This document shows, one piece after another, positions 12,432 through 20,992 of a stretch of 64,000 bases of DNA. This DNA comes from an uncultured Parachlamydiaceae bacterium (GTDB taxonomy: Bacteria; Chlamydiota; Chlamydiia; Chlamydiales; Parachlamydiaceae). The notes beneath the pieces were generated by a model, which had not been told where the DNA came from, searched no databases, and saw nothing but the letters and a program-made list of their open reading frames with translations. The position numbers and the translations under genes were made by a program. How positions within the stretch are numbered: the first letter of the stretch is position 1; the number at the start of each line of letters is the position of its first letter. The DNA lies in assembly GCA_963742415.1 (NCBI GenBank), contig CAVULX010000003.1, positions 864,001 to 928,000 of the forward strand, read 5' to 3'.

Positions 12432-15400
12432 TTAAGGATTTAAAAAACCAATAAACTCACCCTCTTTAGAAAATCTTGCCCCTGGGCCATTCGCTATTTT
12501 AACATCGATAACATCGCCACCATATCTCTCTCGATAACTTCGTACAATAATACTATCAGGATGTGTCAAGATATCATCCAAGTGGTATTGACCTTGAGCA
12601 TTTTTGCTAGCAGCATTGCCTGTAGCTTTAGGAAAAACACTACCAGGACGGCCTCCATGCTTATCTAATGCGCGTCCAGCTTTGTTTAAGCCTCCTCGGT
12701 CCAAAATCTGACCAGCTTTGGATAACGTATTTACACATGGCAGTGATTGTTTTGCAAGGATTTTTGTCGCACTAAACGATCCGATCTTTATCGCATTGCT
12801 TAAGCAGGGCAATTCTCCCCGAACTAAATTATTGTTGAATTGGTTCCTTAAAAGAACATTTTCAGAATATCGTTTGGTTAAATCTGGGGTAACATCTAAT
12901 GCCCAATCGCAAACATGACAGGCAAAACTAATAGGATCAACACCTTCAAAATCTAAATTATTACGACCTCCCAGACACTTATAGTCAAAATATCCAAAAA
13001 TACCAAGCCGAACATCCCTATATGCTTCAGTAATAGCCCTACAAGCCCTTCTTAAAAAAGATGGATTTTGTTCCCGGTTAGGTTGCAAACGCTCTTTTTC
13101 TATCGATTTATTACAGCTTTCCTGACTTCGGAAATGCTCAATGATGCGGTCGGCTTCATATTCATGAAGGGCGTCGATTTCGGGAGAAAGACCGAGCTGG
13201 TCAAAAAAGGCGAGGGGGTTATTAAGGACATAAGCATAGAGGTTGGGGCCGCCCTCTTGAGCAATAGGGTCAGGAGTAATCCAGACAGCAGTTGCAGGAT
13301 CATAATAGCGCAGGCCGAAATAGATGAAGCCGCTTTCAGGATCATGCCGCTTGCCGGCATAACGCCAAGGATTTAGCGAGCTCATCTGCAGCTGCTGCTC
13401 AGCATCATAAATGTTCTCCTCACCAAATGCCGTATACCGATAGGTCTCCACAATACTTCCAGAATGATCCAGCAAACAACTGACATGGCCTAGATGATCA
13501 TGAAGAGGAAAATAAATATTTCCATTCAACTCCATCGCCACTGCTGGATTGCCTCGACCGAATCCCAAAACACGCAATTCGTTAATAGCACCATCCGCCT
13601 GACATGATCCCAATTCGAGATGATCCACATAGAAAAAGAGCTGCTTGAACTGAAGCTGCCAAACATCCCCTTGCTTCTCATAAAAGGTTTTCGAAAGACG
13701 ACGATTGGCTTCGTCATAGGCATAAACGACTTTAGTATCCCCATTCAATATCTCTCTCAACCTATCCTGAGCATCATATTGATACTCCGTATGCCCTGAA
13801 GTTGTATCTGCTGCTATACGATTGCCATTAAGATCATATCCATAATCTCCTTGATCGCTCTTCAGCAACTGGTTAAGGGTATTAAAGTTATAAGAAGCTT
13901 CATCCTTTTGAACATGATTGTAAAGGGAATCATTGAGGTACTTATGTGAAACAGTTCCTGATTCTTCAATCAACTGATACAGGTCATCATAAGCAAATCT
14001 TAATTCCAGACCATTGGCTTGCATCTCTTTGACAACCCTTCCTAAAGGATCATACTCTTTTTGCGTTGTGGTCTGTGAAATGCTTTCATGGACTGAAAGG
14101 GTGTTGTCATTGTGGTCATAAGTGTAAGCATAATGGAATGAGTCGGAAGAAAATGTCTGCAGACGCCCCAGAAAATCATAAGTATGGGACAATGCAGTGC
14201 CATCGGCTTTGGTGATTTTTTCCAATTGCCCATAAGCATTAGAACTTCGATGCACACTCTTTTGTTCAGGGGTTCCAGCCGCTTCAACCGCCAGAACCAG
14301 CCGTCCCATGCTGTCATACTCCCATACCGTGTGCACTTCACGGGTAGAAACATCAGGAGTGAAGACCGTTTCGGTCAGATGGCAGCAGTTCCCATTGAGG
14401 TCATAACTATAGGCGCTTTTTTTAGTGATTTGCCCATATGCATTTTTATAGACTTCTTCCGTCTGTCTCCCTAAAGCATCATAAATTTCAAGGATGCTAT
14501 TGCCATTGGGGTCGATGGTTTCTTTTGAAGGGATGGCATAGTCATAGCGGATATAAGTTACCCTTCCCATCGGGTCGGTCATCTGAATCGGCTCGTTGCG
14601 GAAGTTATAGACTGTGGAGCTGACCGCAGACTCCCTCTTCGCGAAGTTGCACCGTTTGGATTTTATTGCCTGCTTCGTCGTAGACATAGCTTGTTTGACT
14701 GTAAACAATCTCTGCTTGATCTTGGACCTTTTCTTCTACAACTTTTCCTAAGAAATCATACTGGAAATGGGTGGCTAAATAATCAGTAGCGGACGAGTAT
14801 TGACGCGTTTCGGCGATGAACCCTTGCCGATCGTAAAAATGCTCTGTCCGTTGCCCCTCTTTTTCTGTTCTAATGAGGCGTCCAGCCCCGTCGTAGGAAT
14901 AATAGGTAGTGATCCCTTCCGGATCTGTTTCGCTAGTCAGGTGGAACGGATTGTAGGTGCGGCTTTCCACCGTGAGCAGTTCACCTGCGGGGGAGTAGGT
15001 CTCTTTTTTGATCAAGCGAGCGAGGTAATCGTAGTTATACAGGGTATAGACACCATTGGCTGCGACCGATTTGCTTAGCTGCCCTTTGACCGTATATTCG
15101 AACCGCTCTTGTGTGCCATCGGGGTGGCAGACATAATAAGGCTTTCCCAGAATTGTGGAGCGGGTGGTTGCCGTATGGCCGCAAGGATCTGTCACCGAAG
15201 TGACATGCCCCAAGGGGTCGTATGTTTTAGACGCTACCGCTGTGACACATTTCCCCTTTTCGTTGAGAACTTCAGGAAAAATCGTTTGAACCACTCGATT
15301 GAAATCATCGTACACAAAGTGGGTGGTCTTACCGTGAATATCTGTTGTCGACGTTCGATTGCCAAGTAGATCGTAAGCGTGGAGTGGTGGTCAGCCTTTG

Positions 15401-17510
15401 GGAACCCTTCTCTTCCCGGATGAGGCGGTTCATGTAATCGTAGGCATATGTGCGGATCATCTCAGGAAGCGGGCCCTGTTCACGAATCGTATTGCCGTTG
15501 CCGTCATAGCTGCGCGAAATCTTGTGTCCTAGGGCGTTAGTCTCTTCGAGAACATGCCCCATAGCGTCATACACCCAAGTCAAGGTATAGAGTTCTTGCC
15601 ATTGGCTATCGTAATGGGTTTGACGGATCAAATGCCCTTGATCGTCGAAGGTGTTGACTAATCCCTTTAAAAGACGCTCTTTACCTGTTGCCAAGTTGAG
15701 GCATTTTTCTCTGACCTCGCAAGGCAAGCCTACAGGAAAAGTCGAAGTATTTTTTATCCGGCGGATTTTTCGCTCAGTAACCCCTGTCAGATTGTCTCTA
15801 TCTAAGGTGGTGCCATCATCGCTGATTTCCAGGGTCACGGCTCCATTTTCATCATAAGAGAAAAATTCCCGCATGCGGATATTTCCCACATCCATCGTAT
15901 AACGGGCTTCAAGCAGATCGGTGCCCTCGATATAACTGTATTTGAAATTATGGGGTTTATCGGGGCAGTTTTCATAACGGACAAGATTTCTGTCGTCATT
16001 GGTGTATAGACGTCCGATGTAAAGGTGATCGCACCCATTTTCGATCCCTTTCCCTTGTGGATCTAAAGCCACAGCCGGCTGTTCTTTTCCCGTGAGATTG
16101 CCGTAGAGATGTTCATGTAAAACATTTCCCCGGTCATCATATACATAATTGCGGCAAAAGAGGTTGCTTCCTTTGGAAGCAAAAACTTTGGACATGAGGT
16201 TGCCGCAATCGGGAGTGCCGGGTTCACCCCAGACGAACCGCTCCTCAGCATAAGAAACACGGGGAGGGGTGCCTGCAAAATGTTCAATCTTGGTCAGCCG
16301 TTCCCGAGAGCTATAGTGGTAGATTTTGCATCGATCGTAGGCATCATAGACTTCGGTGCGCAACGAAGATAAATCATACAAAAAGCGGTAGATCGGAATC
16401 GGCGTCTCATCGCTGCCTGCCGGGGCTCTGAGCTGCATGACACGACCTACAACATCCCCTTGAGCGTGGGTTATAGAGTTGGGCCAAACCCGATTTCCCC
16501 CTTCGCTGAAGTAACCGATCTCCAAGCAACGCCCTTCGGGAAGATCCTTGCGGACCATTTTTTGGTGTCCAGGATGATGGATGAGGATGGAGGCATAGAT
16601 GTAAGACTCTTCAGGAGATTGCTCTCTCTTTGCTTTGGTTAGGATCCAATGGGTGCTTTTTTCCCATCTGCTTGGAAAGTCATCGAGGCCGTCGCTCCAA
16701 GACTTATATTTCACGCGACGATATTCCAACTGCGCTAGCTGCTTACCATCTTGCAGCACAGAATAGGTGCGGGCATGGTCAGCCCCTTTGGTTAGCGAAA
16801 ACTGGAGCTGATTTATGACTTTGCCTTGGCTATTTAAAGCTTGAATCTGATCGAAGTAACTGTAGTTAAAATTTTTATATGAATCATCCTTAAAAGTGTA
16901 GGTCAATTGATTCCGGTTGGGTTTTACCGTCTTTTTGATGTAGTGGGTTGAATGACTATCAGAGGGAGTGGTAAAATAGTGTGCTGTCCCTGTGCCCTCT
17001 TTAGCGATGGTTTCTCTTTTTTCAATCGCGAGCCGTTTATAGGTTGTAGCGGCCGCTCATCACCCCTCTGGGAGTATTGGTGACCCCTTTATGGAGAGCC
17101 TCCGGCTTGACGCCGAGAAAGGCGTTGCGGCGATAGCGATCCCCTTCAAAAGGGAATTCGGCCCCAAAAGCATCCCGCTGGACAATGGTGATGGAATTTC
17201 CGTAAGTACTTTCCCGGTAAAGACTGATGTCGTGGTTAAAGCTCCAGGCTTTAAAGAAAGTACTATCCCGCTCATCGGAGCTGCAGTAGAAACGTTGCAG
17301 CATTAAAGGCTCGATGCCAGGCAGCACTACATCGGTTTGCATGTCGACGTAGTCGCCGGTGATCACGTTGACGGAATGGTAGACCAGAGTATTTGGATCC
17401 CCCTCCAAGCTTGTCAGGGCATTTTCAGCGCCGAAGAAGGTTCTGTCTTCGTTTTGACCAAAAGCAAAGGCATGGATAACAAGAAGGCAAAGTACAAAAA
17501 TCGGTTTCAT
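12432..17510 (-). pseudogene. RHS/YD-repeat polymorphic toxin with Sec-like signal peptide, split by three frameshifts (about 17040, 15382, 14633)
   Basis: ORFs 17510-17037, 16906-15329, 15315-14605 and 14708-12432 join into one protein: MKPIFVLCLLVIHAFAFG signal, VNVITGDY N-domain, many YD repeats, RHS core ending DQLGL, tip AGRALDKHGGRPGS...FIGFLNP. Confidence 0.88.
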
Positions 17511-17719: not shown

Positions 17720-18886
17720 TTATAAAAAGTAAAGATATGTCGAGAAAGCAAACGCAGCAAAAACAGGCACTTTGATCGGTGTAAAATTTTTAAGGCGATA
17801 AAGAATATTTAAGACTGTAAGGATAATCAAGCCTGGATAACAAATTTGTAAAATCGGCGAAAGAAATTTGGAAATCCCTGTAAATTCAAAAGTCGATACA
17901 AAAAATGTCAAAAGCAATGACCCAAGCAGCGTCCATTCGTAACTTATTTTTTGCTTAAAAACCTCTTTTTGAATGAAGTCTGTAAAGGCAGATATCAATG
18001 CGATAGCTGTTGTTAAACAGGCCAAAGCAATGGTAATGCATACAAGAATTCCCGCCTTAGCGCCTGCAATCCTCATCGTAATAGCTGGGAGCAATTCATC
18101 TTTTCCACTGATATCGAGATAACTTCCATGAAAAGCTGCAAGGTAACTGAACCCTACATAAATGAGGGCAAGTAAACAAGCTCCAACAATGCTAGCGCGA
18201 AAGGCTGTTTTTATATAACTATTCGAGGAGTGCTCAGTGGATTCATCTTTCTGTAAGCGCACTCTCAAAAGATTTAATATTGTCGATGAAAAGAAGAACG
18301 CCGCTAATAAATCCATCGTATTATAACCTTCCTTTAGTCCATGCAAAAACATGGCGGAATTGGTTTCATTGACGTTCTGCATATTTGGTTCAGCAATTAG
18401 CCCCATGATAATGATAGAAATAAGAGAAATTAACAAGGCCGGGGTCAAAACCCATCCTAGAAGAGTTAAGATTTGATTTTTTCTAAAGGTGAAAAGAAAA
18501 ATAGTTCCACAGGCTAACGCACTAAACAGAACAGGAGGTATGTTCATAAAAGAACTTTTCAATGTTGTGTAAGATAGTGCAATACACCTCGGAGTAGACC
18601 CTAAGGGGCCCAAAAGGCTAATGATGATGAGGGCAAGCAAAAATCCGGGGATCTTTCCTAACCTTCCAAAAAATTGCCGGTAATTCCCATCAAACAAAAT
18701 CATGGCAATGACACCGGCTATAGGCATGATAGCAGCTGTGAGGATCAACCCGGACATCGCATAAAAGTTTTTATCTCCCGCATATTGCCCGACAGCTAAC
18801 GGAAAAATAATATTGCCTGCTCCAAAAAACATCGAAAACATGGCTAGCCCGATTGCTAGTGATTGTGATTTTAATAATTTATTCAT
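17720..18886 (-). CDS. brnQ: Branched-chain amino acid transport system II carrier
   Basis: GLAMFSMFFGAGNIIFP, GPLGSTPR, EGYNTMDLLAA, LACLTTAI; about 12 TM segments. Confidence 0.95.
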   Translation of the reverse strand: MNKLLKSQSLAIGLAMFSMFFGAGNIIFPLAVGQYAGDKNFYAMSGLILTAAIMPIAGVIAMILFDGNYRQFFGRLGKIPGFLLALIIISLLGPLGSTPRCIALSYTTLKSSFMNIPPVLFSALACGTIFLFTFRKNQILTLLGWVLTPALLISLISIIIMGLIAEPNMQNVNETNSAMFLHGLKEGYNTMDLLAAFFFSSTILNLLRVRLQKDESTEHSSNSYIKTAFRASIVGACLLALIYVGFSYLAAFHGSYLDISGKDELLPAITMRIAGAKAGILVCITIALACLTTAIALISAFTDFIQKEVFKQKISYEWTLLGSLLLTFFVSTFEFTGISKFLSPILQICYPGLIILTVLNILYRLKNFTPIKVPVFAAFAFSTYLYFL

Positions 18887-19014
18887 GGTTTTTATTTATT
18901 TACCTCTATTGTGGTTTATTTCCATCGCATGCCACAGGCACGATGAATTAGGTCAGGTTGACTCTGCTGACTTTGTTTTTGTTAGTTCGAATGATGATGT
19001 ATGGGTGGAATAAA

Positions 19015-19080
19015 TTATATGTGCGCGAAGCGCACGACGACGACGGCAGACACAACCACGGCAACAAAAGAGGATAGCAT
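19015..19080 (-). CDS. Putative Val-rich attenuator leader peptide of brnQ (MLSSFVAVVVSAVVVVRFAHI)
   Basis: 21 codons, 8 of them Val in two runs; GAAGG RBS upstream; ends 128 nt before brnQ; hairpin GTGCGC-TTC-GCGCAC at the end of the Val run. Confidence 0.78.
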   Translation of the reverse strand: MLSSFVAVVVSAVVVVRFAHI

Positions 19081-19236
19081 AGTAATAGAGCCTTCATGCT
19101 CCAATGCTTCGCTAATAATGTTACTATTTTTCTTTAAATAAGACATAAAAAAACAAAATTCCCCTTTTGTGAAAGTAACATATTTCACCCATTTTTTGCA
19201 AACCAAAAAATGAAGAGCTTCAATTTAGAGAAAAAC

Positions 19237-19266
19237 AAAGCTCAGGTTAAAGTTTGCCTGAGCTTT
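19237..19266 (-). terminator. Intrinsic terminator of the TauD gene
   Basis: AAAGCTCAGG...CCTGAGCTTT stem, followed on the minus strand by GTTTTT. Confidence 0.65.
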
Positions 19267-19275
19267 ATTCCAGGA

Positions 19276-20877
19276 TTATTGAACCATTGAGGCTAAAATG
19301 CGGCGTTGGCCGACGTAAGGATTGCGTCCATGGCATGCTTTGCGGTTGTGCAAAAGCAACAGATCCCTTTCTTGCCAGTCGAATTTGACTGTGACCCCAT
19401 CCAGAGCATCGTAAATTTCATAGACAACATCTTTGGGGATCTCGGTCTCATCTTCAAATTCAATTTCATACTGTCTGGTTGAAGGGGCAATATAAAGGAG
19501 GTTAGCCATTAAGTGATTGACCCAGCCATTGCGAATACGGGGGTTTCCATGATAAAGATAGGCTTGGTTGAACCAATATGGGTGGTCAAAATATTCGTCG
19601 GGGCCCTGAGTTGCCGGAACATGCCGGATGACCTCTATCCAATCGCCGGTCCATTCGCATTCATATCCTTTTCGTTCACATATTCTGGCGACTTCATCTT
19701 TATCTGTTGTTTCAAAAGCTTGAGGCCATGTTTTATGCGTCGGATTTACACGAGAGAAAAAATTCCCTTCAGAAGGATGATGAGTAATATAATTGAGGGT
19801 TTTCCCATAAAACATATTCCAGATGTGGGGCTTCTTCATGATCTCTCTAGTGACATCTTCGGTTTTTGCGAGAATTGTTTCCCCTGAACCTGGATCCGGG
19901 GCTATTTCACAATAGAAGCAAATATAGTCTACAGGATTAAGAGTGCAGCTCAGCTCATTATGCAGAGGGATTTTGAATTCGGGAGGCGCTTCTGTAGACG
20001 TATACACCCCTTGGGTTATTCTTTTTCGGGAACCTTCCCCTTTATAATCGATCAGTTCCCGTCCTGTAATTGTTCGAACAATTGCACCGAAATCGTCTGC
20101 ACTATTAATGGGGAAGTCCCGCAATAAAATTCCTCCTGCGGAATCGATGTAAGATTTTAGTTCTTGCTGATGGATTTCGGCCCATATTTTAAAATTCTCA
20201 AGGGTGATATCTTGGCTTTTTGGGGAGAGGACAAAAGGGAACATTTCTCGATTAACAAAATAGCCGTTAACTTCATCATTTACAAAATCAAGGGAACCGA
20301 GGGAAGACAAACTTGATTTTATTTGTGGTTCCTCTTCAACAGAGTCTCCCACACACACGTCCACAATAGAGGTTTCCATTTGGGGTGAATTTGCTTCAGA
20401 AAGTTGTGTCGATTGATCCTCGAACTGAAGTTTGGCAAGTACATCATGGACTTGAGACTTATCGTAAGAAGAAACTTCTGTGGTTTGATAAAGGGCCTGA
20501 AAAGAAAATGGGGATAAATCGAGCGACGTTAACTCACAGATGTTTAATTTTGAACTTCCCTCTTGAGATAAAATTTGAGTGCATTGACCGTCGTTTAGGC
20601 ATAAGATGACACCCTGAATATCTTCTTCCGATGACCCTACAAAAAGGAGGGTTCCCGGCGGCAAGCCATCGGCTCCAATCCACTCGGGTGTTGAACCATC
20701 TAAATAAGTCAGGGTGTATTGACCTTTCATCCTGTTCTTTTCCACGTTTCGATAGAGTTTCCTAATCAGTTTTTGACTATCATAAGAGGCTTGAATCGTA
20801 TAGGAATCCACTTCTTGAATAGTTGTGTCATTTGAACCTGTAAACCCTATTATCGTGGCAAGCAAAACCATCATCAT
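19276..20877 (-). CDS. TauD/TfdA-family 2-oxoglutarate dioxygenase with a signal-like leader and an unknown N-terminal region of about 200 aa
   Basis: GGILLRDFP, VYTSTE.PP..IPLHNELS, W...D.LLL.N....HGR.PY.G.RR; hydrophobic N-terminus MMMVLLATIIGF. Confidence 0.85.
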   Translation of the reverse strand: MMMVLLATIIGFTGSNDTTIQEVDSYTIQASYDSQKLIRKLYRNVEKNRMKGQYTLTYLDGSTPEWIGADGLPPGTLLFVGSSEEDIQGVILCLNDGQCTQILSQEGSSKLNICELTSLDLSPFSFQALYQTTEVSSYDKSQVHDVLAKLQFEDQSTQLSEANSPQMETSIVDVCVGDSVEEEPQIKSSLSSLGSLDFVNDEVNGYFVNREMFPFVLSPKSQDITLENFKIWAEIHQQELKSYIDSAGGILLRDFPINSADDFGAIVRTITGRELIDYKGEGSRKRITQGVYTSTEAPPEFKIPLHNELSCTLNPVDYICFYCEIAPDPGSGETILAKTEDVTREIMKKPHIWNMFYGKTLNYITHHPSEGNFFSRVNPTHKTWPQAFETTDKDEVARICERKGYECEWTGDWIEVIRHVPATQGPDEYFDHPYWFNQAYLYHGNPRIRNGWVNHLMANLLYIAPSTRQYEIEFEDETEIPKDVVYEIYDALDGVTVKFDWQERDLLLLHNRKACHGRNPYVGQRRILASMVQ

Positions 20878-20992
20878 AAAAACCTCCAAAACATACTGTC
20901 AAATTCAAAAAAAAATTAGCGAGAAGAATGTGTTTTATGCGTAAAAGCGATAAAAGTCAAGAAGGCATATGAAATTTTATAATATATCTTTT

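Follow-up and report, generated by a model that had tools for sequence, protein, structure and literature searches.

A Val-rich leader ORF ending in a conserved hairpin upstream of chlamydial brnQ: a predicted ribosome-operated attenuator

What does a short, Val-rich open reading frame (ORF) do directly upstream of a branched-chain amino acid (BCAA) transporter gene in a member of the Chlamydiae? The question is raised by a 64,000-nt stretch of DNA from an uncultured Parachlamydiaceae bacterium (contig CAVULX010000003.1), here called the window, whose positions we use for this locus. Its brnQ gene (17720 to 18886, minus strand), the presumed regulated gene, encodes a 388-aa protein of the branched-chain amino acid transport protein family (PF05525, E = 3.6e-61). 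A first reading of the letters alone (the original prediction) had proposed that brnQ is preceded by a Val-rich leader ORF, a hairpin, a G-poor tract and a second hairpin; all four are present on the minus strand. Our comparison of this locus with its relatives leads us to consider it moderately probable that the region is a ribosome-operated leader, or attenuator, which would couple brnQ expression to the supply of charged tRNA-Val, with Ile or Leu sensed in relatives.

The leader ORF as first proposed runs from the ATG at 19080-19078 to the TAA at 19017-19015 and encodes MLSSFVAVVVSAVVVVRFAHI, 21 codons of which 8 are Val (short form, 19015 to 19080, minus strand). GAAGG lies 10 nt 5' of ATG 19080, which is a long spacing. 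The frame remains open further upstream, with an ATG at 19146 (43 codons) and a TTG at 19206. Since the leader ORFs of the two closest relatives, L050 (MSLLKNN...) and L002, start at the position that aligns with ATG 19146, the leader ORF probably starts there rather than at ATG 19080 and has 43 codons, encoding MSYLKKNSNIISEALEHEGSITMLSSFVAVVVSAVVVVRFAHI (long form, 19015 to 19146, minus strand, with the same frame and the same TAA). The Val-rich frame and the stop of the first proposal are therefore real, and its 21 codons are probably the 3' half of a longer ORF. An earlier Val cluster lies at 19065-19051. The later one, GTC GTC GTC GTG (19033 to 19044, minus strand), leads directly into the hairpin GTGCGC-TTC-GCGCAC (19021 to 19035, minus strand), with the last Val codon forming the first three bases of the stem. 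In the leader frame, the hairpin reads Val-Arg-Phe-Ala-His.

The original prediction had suggested looking for conserved Val/Leu/Ile-rich upstream ORFs (uORFs) before brnQ in related genomes. We searched 41 related genomes with BrnQ as the query, kept one locus, the best, for each of 30 genomes, and sought codons with T at position 2 followed by GTGCGC-NNN-GCGCAC-AT. The element was found upstream of brnQ in 12 of these 30 protein-retrieved loci. Sorted by identity to the window BrnQ, the motif was present in 8/8 loci at 60% or more, 3/14 at 45 to 57% and 0/6 below 45%; a fifteenth locus of the middle class, L023, came without upstream DNA and was not counted. Within the family, a relaxed pattern matched in 36 of 73 genomes, compared with 7 of 73 for a reversed control pattern. 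When 30 loci matching the relaxed pattern were fetched, brnQ lay directly downstream, in the same orientation, in 18. The other 12 were chance matches in long coding frames, copies of a dispersed repeat confined to one genus, or L055, and they were excluded from the counts. At L055, the match adjoins toxin-antitoxin-like ORFs.

We then built a covariance model from 22 loci and scanned the order, sampling 151 genomes per run under strict filters. In the first sample, the model matched 17 of 151 genomes at E <= 0.01, and 16 of the 17 matches were directly upstream of brnQ; in the second, 16 of 151 genomes had matches. Model matches span 14 families and brnQ-linked copies span 13, while none of the 27 genomes scanned from one family with 1.0- to 1.2-Mb genomes had a match. 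In total, 38 brnQ-linked copies were found in 38 genomes of the order. We regard this conservation in relatives as the decisive sequence-level evidence that the element exceeds chance. A scan of public contigs with the exact pattern returned at least 120 matching loci; almost all were fortuitous hits in genomes of high GC content (median, 0.62). Among those listed, three adjoin brnQ, in an uncultured Chlamydiae bacterium, an uncultured Parachlamydiaceae bacterium and a Waddliaceae bacterium; 40 of the 120 listed loci had only 300-nt flanks, where a neighboring brnQ could escape.

The comparison shows coding-type constraint on the aligned leader ORFs. An in-frame ATG is present in 38/38 brnQ loci, giving ORFs of 17 to 54 codons. 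Among 22 loci, the frame anchored on the stem so as to read GTG CGC (frame 0) had a median of 36 open codons upstream, compared with 13 and 15.5 in the other two frames, and it was open for at least 20 codons in 21. In the same loci, T prevails at codon position 2 back to about position -30 with a 3-nt period, and position 3 is variable. The in-frame stop is tied to the hairpin: relative to the stem start, it begins at +6 in 13 loci, +9 in 2, +15 in 3, +18 in 19 and +21 in 1. It is thus inside the hairpin loop in 15 of 38 loci and elsewhere no more than 21 nt from the stem start. In the other two frames, the first stop is mostly at least 40 nt past the stem start (range, +16 to +1300; 22 loci). 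The N-terminal parts of the leader ORFs are not conserved in sequence.

The codons directly before the stem are strongly biased. Across the 38 loci, the share of Val, Ile and Leu at codons -1 to -4 is 0.92, 0.53, 0.74 and 0.45, compared with 0.23 in the proteome, and further 5' it drops toward the proteome level. Val alone occupies codon -1 in 26 of 38 loci and codon -3 in 21 of 38 (5.5% in the genome), and Val codons lie within 0 to 12 nt of the stem. The type of run goes with the BrnQ clade: it is Val in the clade of the window and Ile (IIRIVR, SIIIVR) or Leu/mixed (LLCLLVR, ILVLLVR) in others. Both tRNA-Val GAC and tRNA-Val UAC are encoded in the genome. Together with the open frame and its periodicity, the conserved run supports, at the level of comparative evidence, the valine-sensing control of a BCAA transporter put forward in the original prediction. 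The sensing half of the model, in which the ribosomal A site would come to rest within the last four codons at Val-tRNA shortage, is well supported. Runs of this kind are rare in the genome at hand, as only two short ATG-initiated ORFs with at least four consecutive Val codons occur in 361 kb outside ORFs of at least 120 aa. The second of the two was rejected as an out-of-frame artefact inside a 118-aa ORF. As a side observation, a 118-aa ORF at L210 2091-2447 (minus strand; G000:C3, about 540690-541046) starts with a dense His/Cys stretch, MAHHHHGHEHQHDQCCSHHHDHCCCC..., and may encode a metal-binding protein.

The ORF might instead encode a functional small hydrophobic peptide, either a micro-protein of the membrane or one akin to type I toxins, and be no sensor. 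Several versions indeed have 12 to 18 hydrophobic residues followed by Arg, such as FVAVVVSAVVVV-R in the window. We consider a functional peptide very improbable. Neither the length (17 to 54 aa) nor the N-terminal sequence is conserved, hydrophobicity is missing from some versions (such as MKNFSVNRFRVVRLAHI), there is no Pfam match, and the ORF is always directly upstream of the transporter gene in the same orientation. In addition, the C-terminus varies with the position of the stop (VVR-stop versus VVRxAHI-stop) while the nucleotides GCGCACAT are conserved. This segment, the 3' arm of the stem plus the following AT, is kept even where a stop in the loop leaves it untranslated, which argues that it is selected as nucleic acid and not as peptide.

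Judged from these alignments, the conserved core of the element is the hairpin and not only the Val run, with the stop codon in or just after it. In the window, the hairpin is the perfect structure that had been described, with a 6-bp stem (GTGCGC at 19035-19030, GCGCAC at 19026-19021) around TTC and a predicted energy of -9.6 kcal/mol, and its 15-nt palindrome occurs only once in the 2.69-Mb genome. Over 44 aligned copies, 98.5% of stem cells are paired, although the alignment was fitted to the covariance model and is biased toward structure. Compensatory changes were seen at three pairs, once each (GTGCCC/GGGCAC, GTGTGC/GCACAC and CTGCGC/GCGCAG); three one-sided changes all yield G-U pairs, and four cells are unpaired. 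The stem is near-invariant among BrnQ loci whose proteins share only 33 to 50% identity. By contrast, the central 3 nt of the loop vary freely. Right after the stem, ACAT followed by mixed A/T/C is conserved. The same 15-mer was also encountered in another setting: one genus has GTGCGC-TTC-GCGCAC at the center of a longer palindromic repeat, dispersed over 54 sites in G044 and 9 in G045 and flanked by arms TTTCGTTT / AAACGAAA (e.g., L034, about 1490-1525).

Near-invariant half-sites around a free center are also what an operator looks like. The palindrome might be a protein site, with the leader ORF secondary: as DNA, it could serve a dimeric regulator as operator or roadblock, and as an RNA hairpin, it could be bound by a regulatory protein or a nuclease. 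The compensatory changes keep the DNA symmetry too, a -10-like TACATT lies 17 to 20 nt after CGCACA in 14/38 loci, and the presence of the identical 15-mer as a dispersed-repeat core in one genus implies that something may recognize it. An operator, however, leaves unexplained the fixed frame register, the abutting Val/Ile/Leu codons and the stop in or next to the palindrome at 38/38 loci. The palindrome is also about 100 to 200 nt downstream of the predicted promoters, with a promoter-like site nearby in only 3/38 loci, and its flanks are asymmetric. Being single-copy in the genome, it defines no regulon. No linked regulator gene was found either, since none of 35 upstream neighbor ORFs has a DNA-binding domain and the neighbors are not conserved. 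We rate a protein site as improbable.

Directly 3' of the hairpin, and including the stop codon, is a G-poor, C-rich, weakly structured tract (18971 to 19020, minus strand), a candidate Rho loading (rut) region. The composition noted at first sight was borne out: 2 G and 13 C were counted in the first 50 nt 3' of the stem, and a composition of G <= 2 and C >= 10 is reached by only 0.7% of the 3268 upstream windows taken from this genome. At most 3 G per 50 nt after the stem were counted in 26 of 34 loci, compared with 8.7% of the 3268 background windows. The tail of the leader ORF is itself pyrimidine-rich (6.3 G and 13 C per 50 nt). The genome encodes a rho homologue (PF07497, 118.7 bits). 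Rut sites are characterized in PMC12360218 as C>G-biased, weakly structured stretches of 60 to 90 nt, and the uORF-controlled Rho attenuators given there include tnaC, speFL, cruR, mgtL and corL.

The statement that the leader lacks an intrinsic terminator held throughout the family. A hairpin followed by a U tail (at least 5 U in the following 9 nt) was found in 0/33 spacers between the core hairpin and brnQ, and no locus has a U tract directly 3' of the core stem. The second hairpin of the window (18921 to 18947, minus strand) is real, with -10.8 kcal/mol compared with -3.2 for shuffles and no U tail. It is not a family feature, however: counterparts occur only in near relatives having long spacers, and no spacer hairpin is predicted in 14/33 loci. 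Scanning the 33 spacers ruled out both a conserved second hairpin and a hidden terminator. Mutually exclusive antiterminator/terminator pairing was likewise missing, as no conserved segment is complementary to either stem arm apart from isolated cases (L068 and L037). A scan of 18000-20000 against Rfam 15 gave nine matches at E <= 10, all far below gathering scores and to unrelated eukaryotic or small-RNA families; these are at chance level, and neither the T-box nor any other known leader family is among them. The G-poor, C-rich composition, the missing terminator and the rho gene favor a Rho-dependent output, for which the fit is one of composition and gene content.

The genome does contain a classical attenuator before another brnQ. 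Its third brnQ paralogue, L078 (G000:C3:554900-556600, minus strand, about 1165-1295 of the locus), is preceded by an Ile-rich leader ORF, MITIQIIVIHAQWRCGPM, and by a strong canonical terminator ending in U9. A second, alternative pairing has the last part of the leader ORF competing for the 5' arm of this terminator. With this textbook arrangement, the organism uses the classical design elsewhere and not at the window locus. The second paralogue, L079 (G000:C1:41700-43500; brnQ start at C1:42288), has a 33-codon ORF about 100 to 230 nt upstream. The end of that ORF is rich in Thr, Ala and Arg (...STRTATATTGRGRTSTR), and TTCCACCC follows just after the stop, as in the window; this leader may be of a third kind and differ in amino acid specificity. 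In another genome (L018, G035), an ORF ending in ...LLNVVVLIPLFAQ-stop, followed by a long GC-rich inverted repeat, is located about 90 to 210 nt upstream of brnQ. This leader is without the conserved hairpin and was unmatched by the covariance model. Three brnQ paralogues in one genome, each with a different leader ORF, offer a compact natural system for comparing attenuator designs.

Could the GC hairpin act without Rho? It might itself cause termination in a non-canonical way or act as a pause signal, and direct occlusion by the ribosome would suffice, with neither Rho nor an alternative structure required. Direct occlusion of a terminator or pause signal by the ribosome has a model in pyrBI. 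A simple terminator scan flags the hairpin plus ATATAATTTA as terminator-like, the Val codons are close enough (0 to 12 nt) for a stalled ribosome to cover the 5' arm, and the conserved ACAT is followed by A/T-rich sequence, with a T-rich TACATTT motif in 14/38 loci. Against this, no locus has a U tract right after the stem, the stem is only 6 bp and -9.6 kcal/mol, and terminators elsewhere in the genome have a long stem and U9. The logic is also weak, since a closely coupled ribosome would block the hairpin with or without Val shortage. We think direct occlusion unlikely, if a little less so than a protein site.

Another way to dispense with a terminator is translational attenuation of the erm/cat or Escherichia coli toiL-topAI kind. 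Here, the tail of the leader ORF would pair with the brnQ ribosome-binding site (RBS), a ribosome stalled on Val would free it, and transcript loss would be secondary, through Rho polarity or decay of untranslated brnQ. Folding of alternative structures, which the original prediction had called for along with RBS sequestration as a possible output, gave a divided answer. In many relatives (e.g., L003, L008, L066, L070, L071 and L073), minimum-free-energy folds pair codons 5' of the Val run with the Shine-Dalgarno region of brnQ. Cognate ORF tail:RBS duplexes average -12.14 kcal/mol, compared with -9.83 for non-cognate ones, and none of 20000 permutations did as well as the cognate mean. The tail finds its best partner in its own RBS in 6 of 34 loci, and that RBS ranks third or better in 11 of 34, with helix sequences that differ per locus. 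The complementarity is specific to the ORF tail, as the post-hairpin tract shows none (18676 of 20000 permutations were as good). The toiL leader, as described in PMC12121999, provides a precedent.

When the footprint of a stalled ribosome was forced open, however, Shine-Dalgarno accessibility rose by more than 0.15 in only 5 of 33 loci (mean, 0.38 to 0.42; Wilcoxon p 0.41). At the window locus, positions -15 to +3 of brnQ are already 0.90 unpaired, and the nearest AGAGG is 17 nt from the ATG. Long-spacer loci, the window included, have weak cognate ORF tail:RBS duplexes, and pyrimidine-rich ORF tails and purine-rich RBSs pair generically. The folding thus turned up ORF tail:RBS pairing in many relatives, with no conserved antiterminator and an RBS that is already open in the window. 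RBS unmasking as a general mechanism is unsupported by constraint folding despite the significant complementarity; in these models, RBS sequestration finds support in some relatives and none at the window locus. We consider translational attenuation doubtful overall, and yet the least unlikely of the rivals set against the attenuator reading.

Under the ribosome-operated attenuator that we prefer, transcription would start upstream of the leader ORF, and the ORF would be translated. Its last sense codons would be the Val run, abutting and partly forming the 6-bp GC hairpin, with the stop in or just after the hairpin. When Val-tRNA is plentiful, the ribosome would reach the stop and leave, the hairpin would fold, and the G-poor, C-rich RNA would lie bare. 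Transcription or expression would then be aborted before brnQ, most likely by Rho. When Val-tRNA is scarce, the ribosome would stall within the Val run and enclose the 5' arm of the hairpin, which could then not form, so that the transcript would be spared and brnQ made. We infer from this arrangement which way regulation runs, what the hairpin does and that Rho takes part. No IlvD homologue was found in the genome, which is 84% complete; this fits a dependence on imported Val and derepression on starvation. Amino acid imbalance can act on Chlamydia through competition at BrnQ. Dependence on host amino acids and growth inhibition by such imbalance are described for Chlamydia in PMC11140210.

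Several observations weigh against this reading, or at least complicate it. Footprint geometry suggests that a ribosome stalled on the Val run would cover the hairpin and the pyrimidine-rich ORF tail and not the downstream tract. In that case, either the hairpin must act in termination or pausing, or the ORF tail must belong to the Rho site. The latter version would resemble lambda tR1, with its rut site split around the boxB hairpin. Nor is the structure exceptional in energy: the core hairpin alone is not more stable than shuffles (15 of 200 fold as well; z -1.43), and neither is the whole leader fold (z -1.36). A stem sequence this close to invariant is unexplained by structure alone and hints at sequence-specific recognition. 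Val codons near the stem are GTC in 56 of 73 cases (77%), compared with 30% genome-wide, so that the run appears to be constrained also at the nucleotide or isoacceptor level, and an argument from synonymous variation is weaker. Theory on leader-codon choice would suggest that isoacceptor identity matters, and the GTC preference may reflect either such an effect or a constraint on the RNA sequence itself. Our promoter scan gave no site above threshold at the window locus. The counts of conserved loci overstate independence because the loci come from related genomes. Finally, a TACATTT-like motif 3' of the stem, seen in 14 of 38 loci (18 to 21 nt away in 12 and 14 and 25 nt away in two), might mark a point of pausing or release, or else serve as a weak internal -10 element. 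Its carriers are L002, L004, L013, L015, L053, L063, L070, L071, L074, L075, L203, L206, L207 and L208; more T usually follows, and the window itself has only ATACATC at 18999-18993.

A more specific version of the attenuator takes the invariance of the stem at face value. The stop-carrying hairpin might be a dedicated read-out module, recognized in a sequence-specific manner by Rho, by paused RNA polymerase or by an RNA-binding factor, and combined by chlamydiae with interchangeable Val, Ile or Leu runs for BrnQ paralogues and for mitochondrial-carrier-type proteins. We offer this as a tentative proposal. In two genomes of other families, the element precedes not brnQ but genes of the mitochondrial carrier family (PF00153): L072 has two tandem copies at 1501-1857 before an ORF at 1991-2578, and L205 has a copy at 1501-1597 before an ORF at 1658-2563. 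The leaders there end in ...LILVR-stop and ...LLIVR-stop, which hints that the bacterial mitochondrial-carrier proteins behind the element may handle BCAA. At L209, the element is upstream of an ORF with no family assignment. Since the codon run varies with the BrnQ clade and the element also precedes mitochondrial-carrier genes, it may be usable to predict transporter substrates. If the read-out module is real, it would be a distinct class of ribosome-sensed attenuator that predicts the substrates of the transporters behind it, and it would give a first entry point to the sensing of host amino acid supply in these obligate intracellular bacteria.

The surroundings of the leader place limits on its transcript. 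The gene upstream of brnQ is an ORF at 19276-20889 of the TauD family (PF02668). Its canonical intrinsic terminator (19231 to 19266, minus strand; a 10-bp stem and then GTTTTT) sets the upstream limit of the brnQ transcription unit and leaves 345 nt of non-coding DNA before brnQ. Within this space is a weak, putative promoter (19172 to 19201, minus strand) composed of TTGCAA (19201-19196), an 18-nt spacer and TACTTT (19177-19172). Its position is shared with TTGCAA-18-CATAAT and TTGTAA-18-TATACT of the two closest relatives, L050 and L002. Among the 38 loci, 24 have a promoter-like site upstream of the leader ORF and 3 have one near the hairpin, as raw counts without a shuffle control. In L004, L040, L006, L012, L057, L067 and L206, a good -10-like element ends 6 to 8 nt before the first in-frame leader ATG, and in L042 and L073 such an element overlaps the ATG. 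With a -10-like element so close to its start, the leader ORF at these loci may be translated from a leaderless mRNA. On the other side of brnQ, at 15329-17510 (minus strand), adjacent ORFs with matches to DUF6531 (157 aa) and RHS repeats (525 aa) look like pieces of a polymorphic-toxin-type RHS gene.

No account of a leader ORF or an attenuator upstream of brnQ in chlamydiae came up in our literature searches, with supplements and non-open papers outside their scope, and none was known to the original prediction; the chlamydial brnQ leader is apparently undescribed. Chlamydiae have few known nutrient-sensing regulators and rely on host amino acids. If a conserved cis-acting sensor of Val, Ile or Leu supply sits before their BCAA importers, this would account for uptake that follows demand with no transcription factor devoted to the task.

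How, then, does the element compare with known systems? The classical BCAA leader-peptide attenuators are ilvL-ilvGMEDA, ivbL-ilvBN and leuL-leuABCD of E. coli and Salmonella. The brnQ leader shares with them a short leader ORF, a cluster of codons for the sensed amino acid and a hairpin at the end of the ORF, and in both the position of the ribosome would report tRNA charging. Unlike them, it has no GC hairpin with a U tract and no terminator/antiterminator pair (0/33 loci), and it has instead a fixed 6-bp hairpin sequence that holds or abuts the stop. Its target is an importer and not a biosynthetic operon, and its lineage is the Chlamydiae. Judged by its sequence features, the element thus works like a leader-peptide attenuator but fails two classical features, the intrinsic terminator and the alternative hairpins.

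The ermC and cat leaders operate by translation attenuation. In toiL-topAI of E. coli, translation attenuation comes with secondary Rho termination, according to the account in PMC12121999. A stalled leader ribosome remodels RBS pairing there, and part of the brnQ family has an RBS-complementary ORF tail. At brnQ, however, the trigger would be amino acid shortage and not antibiotics, and the predicted opening of the RBS is small in most loci and absent at the window locus. The T-box leaders found before brnQ-type transporters in Firmicutes, as presented in PMC2494555, resemble the predicted logic in that a BCAA importer is turned on when the cognate tRNA is uncharged. They differ in kind, as a T-box is a structured RNA that binds tRNA directly and has no leader ORF.

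A further likeness is to the uORF-dependent Rho attenuators for which PMC12360218 gives the examples tnaC-tnaAB, speFL-speF, cruR-bfrG, mgtL-mgtA and corL-corA. They share with brnQ a leader ORF that leads straight into an unstructured C>G tract, the lack of an intrinsic terminator, and a transcript whose fate would hang on where the ribosome stands at the end of the uORF. Several of the examples in that source also have a transporter as the target (tnaB, bfrG, mgtA and corA). The brnQ leader departs from them in that its stall site would precede the stop and not be on it, and in that the role of Rho is here a prediction from sequence. The examples in PMC12360218 respond to a free ligand or ion, with the nascent peptide or proline codons as the sensor, whereas the Val/Ile/Leu run of the brnQ leader implies sensing of tRNA charging. 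The element thus has the sequence-level features of uORF-dependent Rho attenuators, with Rho dependence predicted; if it is Rho dependent, it would add a tRNA-charging input to an attenuator class known mainly for sensing ligands and ions.

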